Shown in pieces: positions 7,991 to 63,061 of a DNA stretch of 64,000 bases. The stretch's first letter is position 1, and every line of letters starts with the position of its first letter. The notes beneath the pieces are model-generated. The model was not told the DNA's origin. It ran no database searches and saw only the letters and a list, made by a program, of their open reading frames with translations. The position numbers were made by a program, and so were the translations under genes. The DNA is from Coriobacteriaceae bacterium (GTDB lineage: Bacteria > Actinomycetota > Coriobacteriia > Coriobacteriales > Coriobacteriaceae): assembly GCA_015062655.1 (NCBI GenBank), contig SUUG01000004.1, positions 1,140 to 65,139 of the forward strand. The letters run 5' to 3'.

Positions 7991-8138
7991 AAAAAGTCGA
8001 TTGTAAGGGGAATTATCGGCTGAGGGCTTTTATCACACGTTTTTGGCGCCATTTTCTCATAGAACTGCCTGTTGGGTGCTTTACTACGGAAAAGTGTATA
8101 TAGCTCCTTCCGGAAAATCCCCTTACAATCGACTTTTT
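7991..8138 (+). repeat. Inverted-repeat-bounded element, copy 1 (148 bp)
   Basis: AAAAAGTCGATTGTAAGGGG (7991-8010) and its perfect complement CCCCTTACAATCGACTTTTT (8119-8138) around an AT-richer core. Confidence 0.9.
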
Positions 8139-8208
8139 GTTTTCAACCAACCCCCCTAATAGAGCCCCGAAGCATGGCAAACGAACAACAAAAGTCATAG
8201 ATCGGCGC

Positions 8209-8913
8209 CTACGCCTCGATCGTGTAGCCCACACCCCAGATGTTCTTGATGAAACGCGGATTCTGGGCATCGTCACCCACCTTCTCGCGCAGGTGGCGGA
8301 TGTGCACCATGACCGTGTTGTTGGACCCCTGCATGAACTTCTCGCCCCACACGGCCTGGAAGAGCTCCTCCACCGGCACCACATGCCCGCGATGCTCGGC
8401 GAGGTAGAGCAGGATGGAGTACTCGAGCGGCGTCAGGCGAACGGAGCGCTCGTCCACGTTCACCGATCGGGCGTCGCGGTTGATCACGAGCCCGTCGAAG
8501 GAGATCACCGCGGAGTCCTCACCGGCCTGGTCGCGGCTGCCGTAGCTCGTGTAGCGCCGCAGCTGAGCCTTCACGCGGGCCACGAGTTCAAGCGGGCGGA
8601 AGGGCTTCACCACGTAATCGTCCGCACCGAGCGAGAGCCCCTCGATCTTGTCGTTTTGCGAGCCCTTCGCCGTGAGCATGATCACGGGATAGGTGTCCTC
8701 GGCCCGAATGGTGCGCAGCAGCTCGAACCCGTCGATATCGGGCAGCATGACGTCGAGGACCGCCAGGTCGAAGCCGGTTTCCAAGATCGCTCGGGCGGCG
8801 TCTGCCCCGTTGTAGGCGAGCGTGACCTCGAAGCCCTCGTTTTTCAGGTAGATGCCCACCAGGTCGGTGATCGTCTTCTCATCGTCGACCACCAGGATAT
8901 GCGGATGCTCCAT
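8209..8913 (-). CDS. VanR-like response regulator
   Basis: ILVVDDE, YLKNE, DDYVVKPFRPLELVARVKAQLRRY, NNTVMVHIRHLREK, WGVGYTIE match the VanR-type OmpR subfamily; ATG 8913 after GAAGGGGG. Confidence 0.88.
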   Translation of the reverse strand: MEHPHILVVDDEKTITDLVGIYLKNEGFEVTLAYNGADAARAILETGFDLAVLDVMLPDIDGFELLRTIRAEDTYPVIMLTAKGSQNDKIEGLSLGADDYVVKPFRPLELVARVKAQLRRYTSYGSRDQAGEDSAVISFDGLVINRDARSVNVDERSVRLTPLEYSILLYLAEHRGHVVPVEELFQAVWGEKFMQGSNNTVMVHIRHLREKVGDDAQNPRFIKNIWGVGYTIEA

Positions 8914-32035: not shown

Positions 32036-32111
<76 letters not shown>

Positions 32112-43259: not shown

Positions 43260-43302
43260 TTATCCCCTCAACCAGCACGACCGCAGGGGGTTGGATCAAT
43301 AG

Positions 43303-43450
43303 AAAAAGTCGATTGTAGGGGCTTTTTTCGATTTCTCCGAGTAGCCGCTGTCGAGCGTTCCTATTTATCTGGTCTTTTGCGATCCGCCGGTTGTGCAAAT
43401 CAGCCCTTTACTGGCAAGAACGCCATTTATCCCCCTACAATCGACTTTTT
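43303..43450 (-). repeat. Inverted-repeat-bounded element, copy 2 (148 bp)
   Basis: AAAAAGTCGATTGTAGGGG (43303-43321) / CCCCTACAATCGACTTTTT (43432-43450). Confidence 0.9.
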
Positions 43451-48175: not shown

Positions 48176-48322
48176 AAAAAGTCGATTGTAAGGGGCTTTT
48201 CCCGCTTACCCTCAGTACACTTTATCTGAACAGAGCGCTATGCTGGGAAAACATGGACTCAAAGTTGTTCAAATCAGCTGTCTACTTTAGAAATCTGAAA
48301 AATCCCCCTACAATCGACTTTT
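48176..48322. repeat. Inverted-repeat-bounded element, copy 3 (core inverted relative to flanks)
   Basis: AAAAAGTCGATTGTAAGGGG (48176-48195) / CCCCCTACAATCGACTTTT (48304-48322). Confidence 0.9.
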
Positions 48323-48394
48323 CCGTTTTCTATAACCCCCCTGACCGGCGATCCCGGCACCTGGTCCTGGGCATCTCGCACAATAAAGAGAAGG

Positions 48395-49468
48395 TTACAT
48401 ACCAAGTGTTGCCCAGTCGATCAGGATCTGCCTTCGCAGCTCTTGCTCGCGCTCGAGGTACGCGCGGCCTTTGGGCGCAAGACGGGCTCCGACGCCGCGG
48501 GCTATGTGTCGCACGACCTCGTCCCACGTCTGGCGCTGGTACAGCTGCCTGCTTGTAAGCAACACCACGTTGTAACCCATGGACTCCAGCGCCGTCGTCC
48601 GACCGGCATCCGACAGATAGCTTTCAGCCCGATCGTGAATGAGGGCGCTTTGGCACTCCACCACCACCGTCTGCCCCTGTCCACGCGGCTCGAGAACGAT
48701 ATCCCCATAGCAGAGGCTCTTCCCTGAAATCCTCTGGGCAGCCCGCGTCAACTGGATGGGCACATTGAGCTGAACCGGGTTGATGCCCGCGCCGCCCAAC
48801 GACCGAGGGAAGCTCAGCAGCATGGCCGCCTGTACCTCGAACGGTGAGGCGGCGACCCCTCGCACGAGGGACGCGGCCCTTTTGAACTTCTTGCAGCCGT
48901 GCATTCCCTCTATCATGCTCGACGCGCGCTCCAGGTCGGATACGTCAAGCAGCGCGGGGCGCCTCCAAAGTGCGGTCGGCCTGCCCGACGCGTCGCGCAC
49001 AGGCTTCCAATCGTCATGGCACCGGCCGCCACCGGCGCTCGATATCTCGTCGATCATCCCATCGAGACAGGCCGGGGCGCTGAAAACCGTGAACGTCCCG
49101 CACAGCTCGTACATGGCCATGCAGAGCTGGGGGACCGACAACGAGCGCGCCATCGTGGCCAGCGCCAGCAACGGCGACACCGAGAGCTCCTCATGCTGCG
49201 GGCCAAACGGGTCCCATCCGGGCAGCTCCGGTAGGAAGTGCCCCTTCACGCCCTGAATCCCTGAGCACGCCCCGCGCCTCTCAGTCAGGATGTGCAGAGG
49301 CGAGGAGAACAGGCCGGCTCCGCCCTTCACGTCCAGAACGCCGAATTGCATCAGCGCCTCTCGCCCGATCGGGGTGCCCAGGCACTCCGGTCCGGGAAGC
49401 ATCTCCCTGATAAGCGGCGGGATGCGATGGTATTGAAATGCGGAGGCGCCGCAGAGGATGCGTTCCAT
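48395..49468 (-). CDS. Hypothetical protein with a C-terminal DUF559/Vsr-like PD-(D/E)XK nuclease domain
   Basis: AASPFEVQAAMLL then YGDIVL...VVVECQS..IHD...SDAGRTTALESMGYNVVLLTSRQL, the pattern of DUF559-type folds; ATG 49468. Confidence 0.7.
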   Translation of the reverse strand: MERILCGASAFQYHRIPPLIREMLPGPECLGTPIGREALMQFGVLDVKGGAGLFSSPLHILTERRGACSGIQGVKGHFLPELPGWDPFGPQHEELSVSPLLALATMARSLSVPQLCMAMYELCGTFTVFSAPACLDGMIDEISSAGGGRCHDDWKPVRDASGRPTALWRRPALLDVSDLERASSMIEGMHGCKKFKRAASLVRGVAASPFEVQAAMLLSFPRSLGGAGINPVQLNVPIQLTRAAQRISGKSLCYGDIVLEPRGQGQTVVVECQSALIHDRAESYLSDAGRTTALESMGYNVVLLTSRQLYQRQTWDEVVRHIARGVGARLAPKGRAYLEREQELRRQILIDWATLGM

Positions 49469-54522: not shown

Positions 54523-54722
54523 TGGGGGCAAGGATAGCACATCGGGACAAGCAGCGTGATGCGGACCGCCCCGCGCCGCGCCCCCAGATGCCGAGCGTTC
54601 GTAATTGCCGCTTTTCGCGGCCGAAAATGCCGAATTGCGAACGCTCGGCATCCACGCGCTACACTGGTGCCACCGCAAGACCCGCCGCCCGCACGGGTGG
54701 CCCGCGCGCAAAGGAGACCGCC

Positions 54723-59717: not shown

Positions 59718-59866
59718 AAAAAGTCGATTGTAGGGGGATTTTTGTCGACCCCTGTTATAGAGGCCTGTTTTGAACAACCAGCGGCTCGCTTTTCCCCAGA
59801 TGGTTGCTTCGTCTAGGTAAAGTGTACTGAGGGGAGTCCTAAAAATCCCCCTACAATCGACTTTTT
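59718..59866 (+). repeat. Inverted-repeat-bounded element, copy 4 (149 bp, perfect 26-bp IR)
   Basis: AAAAAGTCGATTGTAGGGGGATTTTT (59718-59743) / AAAAATCCCCCTACAATCGACTTTTT (59841-59866). Confidence 0.92.
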
Positions 59867-60323
59867 TATTCTACTAACCCATCGTCTCTGCACGAAATAC
59901 GGGAGCGTCGCCCCGCCCCGATGGACAAATGGCCCGTACCCAGATGCCCTGGAGCGCCAGCGAAGCGATGTCCCCGCCTCCCCGTGCTCCGGCGGGGCGA
60001 TGCCCCTGCGTCCTGGCGCTCCGTCCGCTCAACACCGCGGTGCCCCGGTCAAGTAATGCCGCCGTCCCAGCGTGCCGACCACGCGGTGCCCCCCGCGTTC
60101 CGGCGCACCGGCAGCCCAACGCCGCGCCGGCGGGGCGACGTCGCTGCTTCCCGGCGCTCCGGGCGCCCGATGCCGCGCCACGGCGCCCCGCGCCGGCGCC
60201 GTTCCACGCCCCACAACGACCGCAGGTTCTGCTCATCCTCCGGCTTTCCGTTTCCCCGCCATCCCGGCGCTCCGATGCGATATGGTAGCTGGACTATATA
60301 TCCGGGGAGCAGAGGGAGCAGAT

Positions 60324-62378: not shown

Positions 62379-62515
62379 TCGTATGTTTCAGGGCGGGGCG
62401 CAATTCCCCACCGGCGGTGACAGACGGCGAACCCGTCTGGAGCCCGCGACCCGCGCACGCGGTTGACCTGGTGCGATTCCAGGGCCGACGGTCACAGTCC
62501 GGACGGAAGAAACGG
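62379..62515 (+). ncRNA. FMN riboswitch (RFN element)
   Basis: TTCAGGGCGGGGCGCAATTCCCCACCGGCGGT...AGCCCGCGA...GGTGCGATTCC...GCCGACGGTCACAGTCCGGACGGAAGAA; the GGAGG RBS abuts P1, suggesting translational control. Confidence 0.95.
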
Positions 62516-62524
62516 AGGCACCCC

Positions 62525-63061
62525 ATGGGTGGCACCATCAACACAAGAAAAATCGCACTGGCCGGTCTTCTGACCGCCGCATCCCTCATCACGAGCTTCA
62601 TACAGATCCCCATCTTCCCCGCCGCGCCCTGGCTCTCCTACGACCCCTCGGGCGTCATCTGCCTGATCGCGGCCCTCGCCTTCGGCCCGAAGCTCGGCGC
62701 CGCGGTGGCCGTCATCTCATGGCTCCCCCGCATCTTCCTCGACCCCTTCGGCGTGGTCATGGGCGTGCTGAACACCTGCTCGTTCATCATCCCCGCCGCC
62801 GTCATCTACCACCGCGCGCACCGCGGGCGCGCCGCATCCGTCGTTGGCATGGTTGTGGGGGCCCTTGTGGCCATCACGGTGTCGTGCGCGGCGAACCTCG
62901 TCGTCACCCCGCTCTACACCGCCGTCTCGATGGCTGACGTGGTCGCGATGATCCTGCCGATCCTTCTGCCCTTCAACGCGCTCAAGATGCTCATCAACGT
63001 CGTGGCCGGCCAGATCCTGCTCACCCCCTGCATGAACGTCCTCGCCGCACCCGAGCGCTGA
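62525..63061 (+). CDS. ECF transporter S component, probably riboflavin-specific (RibU-like)
   Basis: Small hydrophobic protein (IQIPIFPAAPWLSYDPS...NALK) directly behind an FMN riboswitch. Confidence 0.85.
   Translation: MGGTINTRKIALAGLLTAASLITSFIQIPIFPAAPWLSYDPSGVICLIAALAFGPKLGAAVAVISWLPRIFLDPFGVVMGVLNTCSFIIPAAVIYHRAHRGRAASVVGMVVGALVAITVSCAANLVVTPLYTAVSMADVVAMILPILLPFNALKMLINVVAGQILLTPCMNVLAAPER

Follow-up and report, generated by a model that had tools for sequence, protein, structure and literature searches.

Four intergenic segments of almost equal length, each bounded by the same inverted repeat (IR) and each with its own drifted interior, lie within a stretch of 64,000 nucleotides (the window; C1:1140-65139) of a 2.07-Mb draft genome (67% G+C, 26 contigs, 98.7% complete). 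They raise the question of what such elements are, and of what has kept their ends and lengths alike while their cores diverged. The first-pass annotation had described these four copies, and all of them were recovered where it had placed them, with the end of copy 3 corrected from 48322 to 48323. The family is referred to as F1, and its features in the window are listed below together with a candidate partner gene.

7991-8138, core on the plus strand: F1 copy 1, 148 bp, inside a two-component operon
8150-8156, no strand assigned: outer-arm remnant ACCCCCC, about 12-14 nt beyond the right IR of copy 1
43286-43291: outer-arm remnant GGGGGT of copy 2
43303-43450, core on the minus strand: F1 copy 2, 148 bp
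48176-48323, core on the minus strand: F1 copy 3, 148 bp, the gene-adjacent 'home' copy
48334-48341: outer-arm remnant AACCCCCC of copy 3
48395-49468, minus strand: P0001, candidate partner gene, called at 357 aa, with its longest ORF extending to 49519
59718-59866, core on the plus strand: F1 copy 4, 149 bp
59876-59880: outer-arm remnant AACCC of copy 4

The F1 elements and their surroundings

Copy 1 separates a response-regulator gene (stop at 8209) from a histidine-kinase gene (start at about 7900), both on the minus strand, and copy 2 lies between the stop of a P-type ATPase gene (43598) and the start of the RsgA gene (43259). Copy 3 is found between convergent genes, 72 bp past the stop of the nuclease-like gene and 125 bp past that of a pyruvate kinase gene, and copy 4 between the divergent genes of a PreP-like peptidase (start 59386, minus strand) and an EamA transporter (start 60072, plus strand).

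The whole genome yields 18 paired F1 copies, every one 147-149 bp long, and no unpaired F1 arm occurs in its 26 contigs, contig ends included. The terminal IR, AAAAAGTCGATTGTARGGGG, is near-invariant among the 18 copies, with a TACAAT directed outward in each IR. Eight occurrences of the 16-nt half-site AAGTCGATTGTARGGG were counted in the window, where dinucleotide-preserving shuffles predict 0.03, and the motif-to-motif length of the elements is 137-139. The core motifs reported earlier, TTTGCACAAC and CCAGTTGAGTGCTTTATCTTGATAAAGTGTAC, are recognizable once the copies are oriented by their cores. Between pairs of copies, the 27-nt ends are 86-89% identical, with the inner 20 bp almost invariant, and the cores are 46-48% identical. 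Because even the most similar pair of copies shares only 64% core identity, F1 has no young copies. An exact Hamming scan for half-sites, used here as the spectrum of end decay, returned 13, 7, 13, 2 and 0 sites at 0, 1, 2, 3 and 4 mismatches of 20, respectively, with the background level beginning at five mismatches. As to its form, the family is MITE-like, as had been suggested: it is dispersed and has terminal IRs. No Rfam family matches the elements and no named family was found for them, in agreement with the first-pass annotation; the only Rfam matches in the window are an FMN riboswitch (62380-62518, plus strand, RF00050, 99.4 bits), upstream of an ORF starting near 63061, and one tRNA gene (32039-32111, minus strand, RF00005, 73.2 bits).

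A motif AACCC(CC)/GGGGGT about 14 nt beyond the IR had also been reported, as a conserved feature outside one end. The motif is real but not one-sided: relative to core orientation, 12 copies have it on a single side, four on both and two on neither. It matches the outer portion of a longer IR of 44-47 nt in the elements of relatives, and since it belongs to a symmetric IR, the argument from flank polarity for flipping fails. No target-site duplication is visible beside the F1 IR or the outer GGGGG motif, although short duplications could have decayed in elements whose cores are at 46% identity. A resemblance to Tn3-like 38-bp ends starting with GGGG was rejected, as it is seen in one copy only and comes with no 5-bp duplications.

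Pfam matches were obtained for 24 of 29 flanking ORFs scanned, and nine more ORFs were judged by eye only. The neighbors are ordinary housekeeping genes, with DnaB/PurA, ProB, NadA, FolB and PurN confirmed by Pfam elsewhere in the genome and GlyA, IleS, PEP carboxylase and Dtd recognized by eye. At least 16 of the 18 copies adjoin the 3′ end of one or both neighboring genes; five are enclosed by convergent 3′ ends and only one by divergent genes, and cores point either with or against transcription. One copy (C13:22485-22633) is 133 bp from the gene of an XerC/D-type tyrosine recombinase (L002; C13:22766-23737, minus strand), at a convergent 3′ end. This recombinase was set aside as a partner and its proximity judged probably coincidental, on account of its XerC/D architecture and as one of only two in the genome; such an architecture is expected for chromosome dimer resolution. 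Another copy (C7:8620-8767) adjoins two overlapping ORFs of 130 and 236 aa (C7:8887-9279 and C7:9179-9889, minus strand) that match the C- and N-terminal parts of the DUF362 domain, respectively; this seemingly split gene may reflect a frameshift or be a pseudogene.

In the closest relative (G014), the junction between the response-regulator and histidine-kinase genes is only about 40 nt long and holds no element, which indicates that F1 copies are lineage-specific insertions. The exact F1 IR pair was not found in 60 relatives, 36 congeners among them, nor was the IR pattern in public genome and metagenome contigs, in which records from this genome or very close to it may be missing. Likewise, no other strains of the species were found through the IR pattern, an exact-protein look-up or near-identical proteins in collections. 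The G+C content is 67% in this genome vs 59-65% at the loci read from congeners.

A nuclease-like gene beside its own repeat

The first-pass annotation had stated that the window contains no transposase or recombinase. This requires a qualifier, because a candidate partner nuclease gene, P0001, lies 72 bp from copy 3; the likely partner was missed although it adjoins an element inside the window. Its homologues are at most 39% identical, and its Pfam scores are below the cut-offs for both DUF559 (PF04480; 13.8 bits, cut-off 20.6) and REase_MTES_1575 (PF18741; 18.1 bits, cut-off 38.2). The paralogues, with 18.4-20.3 bits, also remain below the curated gathering cut-offs of DUF559 and MTES_1575. 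An alignment of 18 sequences nevertheless shows the signature CYxD...ECQGxxxH...SDxDRxxALxxMGYxV of the DUF559/Vsr type, invariant motifs in the N-terminal region, and invariant C-terminal residues D256, E271, H278 and R290, which are conserved residues of the catalytic type.

The AlphaFold model of P0001 has a pLDDT of 85 and a pTM of 0.88. Foldseek detected no whole-protein match to the PDB at E ≤ 0.001, and the N-terminal region of about 230 aa has no structural match there. The C-terminal domain matches locally TnsA of Tn7 (1f1z, probability 0.99) and the DUF559-like NGO0050 protein (3hrl, probability 0.95) and, more weakly, the Vsr-like homing endonuclease I-Bth0305I (3r3p, probability 0.47). 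As modeled, this domain is predicted to be DUF559/Vsr/TnsA-like, with a restriction-endonuclease-like fold.

Homologues of P0001 elsewhere also adjoin IR-bounded elements. One homologue (P0003, locus L030) has beside it a 140-bp element whose IR, AAAAAGTCGCTAAGTAGGGGGCTA, is clearly related to that of F1, and another (P0006, locus L032) a 150-bp element with 30-nt IRs. In the congeners G020, G012 and G034, an element of about 185 bp with IRs of 44-47 nt follows 45-80 bp past the stop of the best homologue and is itself followed by a terminator hairpin. A pattern search showed that exactly one copy of this element is present in 14 of 41 genomes and that 13 of the 14 copies adjoin the best homologue listed; in five relatives, each arm taken singly is likewise unique. 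Expansion in congeners was checked for this single-copy element beside the best P0001 homologue only. In five species, the genes of a paralogue group at about 36% identity are preceded, 52 bp before the start codon, by a 128-bp element, and one gene (on G003:C5) has an element on both sides.

Within the class, members of the protein family were detected in 59 of 151 genomes, spread over 19 of 78 genera. Class-wide, an IR-bounded element of 126-190 bp was detected within 450 bp at 18 of 30 homologue loci, vs none of 11 control loci in relatives, by a strict scanner that missed at least two known positives. The repeat sequence differs among protein subgroups, and the adjoining elements measure about 125-200 bp overall. 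Because none of the gene-element pairs in relatives is syntenic with the locus in this window, they represent paralogous lineages and not orthologues.

Paralogues and repeat families in one genome

Seven intact paralogues of the partner gene were identified in this genome by local tblastn, and a genome-wide inverted-repeat scan revealed many dispersed IR families besides F1, which were delimited by eye from the resulting list. The paralogues with an adjoining family are given below by contig, with half-sites counted at up to two mismatches; the control count for F8 is high (53).

Paralogue on C1: family F1, 38 half-sites, past the stop
Paralogue on C5: family F3, 79 half-sites, past the stop
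Paralogue on C10: family F7, 81 half-sites, on both sides
Paralogue on C11: family F8, 162 half-sites, on both sides
Paralogue on C18: family F4, 42 half-sites, 12 bp past the stop and 102 bp upstream
Paralogue on C26: family F6, 27 half-sites, past the stop

Gene and repeat are associated one to one: a different family lies no more than 300 bp from each of six of the seven paralogues, where random 1-kb segments give a background rate of 9.8% (P = 5.7e-6). The seventh paralogue, on C15, has its own small IR 47 bp past the stop, which was matched to no dispersed family. Three families, namely F2, F5 and F9 (CCCGTTTTCTCACG), lack an adjoining nuclease paralogue. The most abundant family is F2, with about 240 half-sites genome-wide, and none of the seven paralogues adjoins it. 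F2 is a REP-like hairpin (GATGCCGAGCGTTCGTAAT...ATTGCGAACGCTCGGCATC) with arms of about 20-30 nt and loops of 10-30 nt, represented in the window at 54587-54652 (C1:55726-55791). F5 (AGGGGGTCGGTCTGACAGAAGTCCCCGCTGTGAACG) comprises about 11 paired copies of about 175 bp in which each end is a hairpin (for example, C4:75710-75883, C10:206288-206461 and C26:118293-118466).

The family F4 (TGGACAAAAATGACGYTAGTCGGTA) brackets its partner gene (C18:92794-93750) with copies at C18:92600-92782 and C18:93852-94050, and its 19 paired copies share almost no sequence in their interiors. F4 is confined to this genome, and the congener homologues of its partner gene are only 41-48% identical. The IRs of both F1 and F4 are absent from 40 congeners, which are likewise without close homologues of the partner genes; the two families are carried by one of 41 sampled species, this genome alone, so that their co-occurrence with the genes is that of a single genome.

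Conserved ends around a free core are a feature shared by F1, F4, F5 and F6, in which the ends are 87-94% identical and the cores 37-48%. The pattern is less clear-cut in F3 and F7 (ends 70-74%, cores 55-64%). Motif-to-motif lengths are 172, 181 or 191 in F4, 161, 171 or 182 in F6, and 137 or 148 in F5, in steps of about one helical turn, and larger steps are found in F3 (119, 160 and 201) and F7 (65, 109 and 140). The earlier proposal that conserved length and ends with a drifting core reflect constrained spacing is borne out by F1, and the fixed or roughly 10-bp-stepped lengths of its sister families add support. In F4 and F6, where hardly any core position is conserved, the length classes represent a constraint on spacing with free sequence, and the two ends of an element must keep a fixed helical register. 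An inner box, GAG(T/C)A(G/C)AC, was considered as an element common to the families and rejected as not general.

Similar to F1, the families F4, F5 and F6 have no tail of decayed ends. Because the interiors are near saturation, where the ends of neutral relics would carry roughly ten mismatches, the ends appear to be actively kept alike.

Explanations and known systems compared

The explanation that we favor, with a probability of about 0.58, is a partnership of the kind known for REPINs and RAYTs, in which the nuclease recognizes and cuts its cognate repeat and so maintains or spreads it. The REP-associated tyrosine transposase (RAYT) was reportedly described by Nunvar in 2010. In such a partnership, copy 3, 72 bp past the stop of P0001, would be the home copy, and the dispersed 148-bp elements would be gene-less copies. 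The protein would recognize both terminal repeats of its own element, with specificity provided by the variable N-terminal region, and joint engagement of both ends would require them on the same helix face, so that the element length would become fixed or quantized. The nuclease domain would cut at the element ends, repair of the break from other copies would homogenize the ends while the interiors drift, and repair might occasionally seed a new copy in intergenic DNA. The physical association of gene and repeat, its specificity and the conservation of ends over cores are observed; binding and cutting of the repeat by the nuclease, and its copying or homogenization, are what we infer here.

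No other mobilizer was found in the assembly, which lacks a RAYT, a resolvase and any long element with F1 ends. A RAYT or a serine recombinase was rejected as mobilizer since both are absent from the genome; for RAYT (PF01797), no match was obtained in this 98.7%-complete genome, while control genomes match. Several points count against the partnership. There are no young F1 copies, F2, F5 and F9 have no adjoining paralogue, and the Pfam scores are sub-threshold; moreover, we know of no strand-transfer activity in a stand-alone PD-(D/E)XK nuclease. In at least 13 congeners the pair stays a singleton, so the adjoining element may serve the gene as a 3′ UTR, terminator or regulatory site, and its dispersal in this genome could be a side effect or have another cause.

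Part of the same evidence would also fit an ordinary MITE family, that is, deletion derivatives of a DDE-type insertion sequence (IS) whose transposase has been lost or is unassembled, with the nuclease gene merely carrying or neighboring one copy. Terminal IRs, a small uniform size and intergenic, lineage-specific insertions such as that at the response-regulator/histidine-kinase site, which is empty in G014, all speak for it; the lack of recent copies agrees with a lost transposase, and an IS could be missing from a draft of 26 contigs. Yet no unpaired or long-range F1 ends occur anywhere, contig ends included, and no full-length parent element with F1 ends was found in the assembly or in public genome and metagenome contigs (from which near-identical records may be left out). 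Neutral relics should, furthermore, have decayed ends, none of which were found, and a MITE origin leaves unexplained both the IR elements that the homologues possess and the one-to-one pairing of paralogues with families; we therefore regard it as unlikely. Still less can be said for invertible switches, as proposed in the first-pass annotation, in which a shared recombinase would flip the segments as in the Mpi-controlled promoters. IRs of about 20-27 bp do bound a fixed segment of about 100 bp with a conserved asymmetric core whose orientation varies among copies, and an Xer-type recombinase gene lies near one of them. However, the genome has no serine invertase (PF00239, no match) and only two PF00589 genes, both of XerC/D architecture, the neighbors are housekeeping genes, the five copies at convergent 3′ ends leave nothing for a promoter to drive, and F4 and F6 have no conserved core at all. 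Together with the symmetry of the outer motif, this gene context and the missing invertase do not bear out the proposal and make it very improbable. In a table row of PMC9881135, the only related entry in the literature searched, predicted inversion targets are enriched for DUF559 proteins (odds ratio 14.3), which could be taken in favor of inversion, but genes bracketed by IRs would produce such a signal, and gene-repeat pairing likely accounts for it.

The elements might instead be useful to the host as bidirectional terminators, mRNA-stabilizing hairpins, outward promoters or sites bound by a nucleoid or regulatory protein, each kept by selection at its own locus, with the neighboring gene encoding the binding protein and not a mobilizing enzyme. 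The frequent position beside gene 3′ ends (at least 16 of 18 copies, with five convergent and one divergent), an IR that forms a 13-19-bp stem flanked by A5/T5, the outward TACAAT in each IR and ends conserved without decay are compatible with such roles; helically phased spacing is expected of looped protein-DNA complexes, and pairing is modestly supported for a small 6-bp internal palindrome. On the other hand, a structured RNA was rejected, as RNAalifold gives the terminal stem only and no covariation, and the single variable IR position (R/Y) changes on one arm irrespective of the other, which points to sequence recognition and not to pairing. Cores lie in both directions with respect to transcription, congeners lack any dispersed copies, and the loop would be about 110 nt, unlike those of intrinsic terminators. 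Host use is for these reasons a rather poor candidate as the main explanation.

Dispersed intergenic repeats are common in bacteria and, to our knowledge, the enzyme behind them is usually not known outside REP/RAYT. A partnership of a nuclease and a repeat of this type was not found described in the literature searched. This case adds a subfamily of about 350 aa whose N-terminal region is distinct, the coexistence of six or more pairs within a single small genome, singletons in congeners vs a burst here, length quantization of about 10 bp, and the lack of decayed ends. The candidate enzyme, found by repeated physical linkage, belongs to a large and as yet unstudied set of DUF559-like "hypothetical proteins." This genome, whose 2 Mb hold seven paralogues and no fewer than six expanded families, and whose congeners have the pair as a singleton, is an unusually good model, and the partnership makes testable the cognate-only binding and cutting of repeats, the dependence on helical phase, and cutting as the cause of alike ends with drifting interiors. 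More tentatively, and with some doubt, DUF559-like nucleases with such an N-terminal region might form an unrecognized class of repeat-keeping enzymes that act without transposase chemistry. Each would recognize an IR pair of about 25-45 nt in helical register, cut it, and drive repair-templated homogenization and occasional spread, with at least six mutually orthogonal pairs in this genome. Those pairs would then be a panel of naturally occurring modules that recognize long DNA sites in a sequence-specific way, and a tractable system in which to study how such selfish or mutualistic replicators coexist.

Among known systems, the Mpi-controlled promoters of Bacteroides fragilis are invertons that share one recombinase. 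F1 resembles them in that one IR sequence bounds a fixed-size segment at many loci, and differs in lacking an invertase, a consistent geometry between promoter and gene, and surface or variable genes as targets. The proteins TnsA, I-Bth0305I and NGO0050 superpose locally on the C-terminal domain of the partner protein, which keeps the signature D...E.(Q/H/D)G..H...D..R..L..G. TnsA acts together with the DDE transposase TnsB, and homing endonucleases insert copies of their own gene at empty sites; here, the matches are local only, and dispersal concerns the repeat, with the gene remaining single-copy. The Correia elements of Neisseria are intergenic MITEs of about 150 bp with terminal IRs of about 26 bp and promoter-like hexamers in their ends. 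They are like F1 in size, terminal IRs, promoter-like hexamers, insertion within operons and the lack of an internal transposase gene. Different from the Correia elements, F1 shows no target-site duplication, its cores are near saturation with intact ends, and one of its copies adjoins a specific nuclease-like gene, homologues of which have elements of their own.

The arrangement resembles that of the REPIN-RAYT system (Bertels & Rainey, PMC3337134), although the enzyme here is unrelated, having a PD-(D/E)XK (DUF559/Vsr/TnsA-like) domain in a genome without a Y1/HUH transposase. The elements are also longer (148 bp in F1, up to about 200 bp), with a non-palindromic interior of about 95 nt and fixed or roughly 10-bp-stepped lengths. 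A REPIN is a doublet of GC-rich REP palindromes of 20-40 bp, whereas the F1 arms are not strong palindromes (F5 has hairpin arms), and the population size is one in most congeners. Common to both systems are a single-copy gene beside its own IR element with gene-less copies in intergenic DNA, a lineage-specific repeat that tracks the gene subgroup, arms that are conserved while the spacer is less so, and the presence of several systems per genome.
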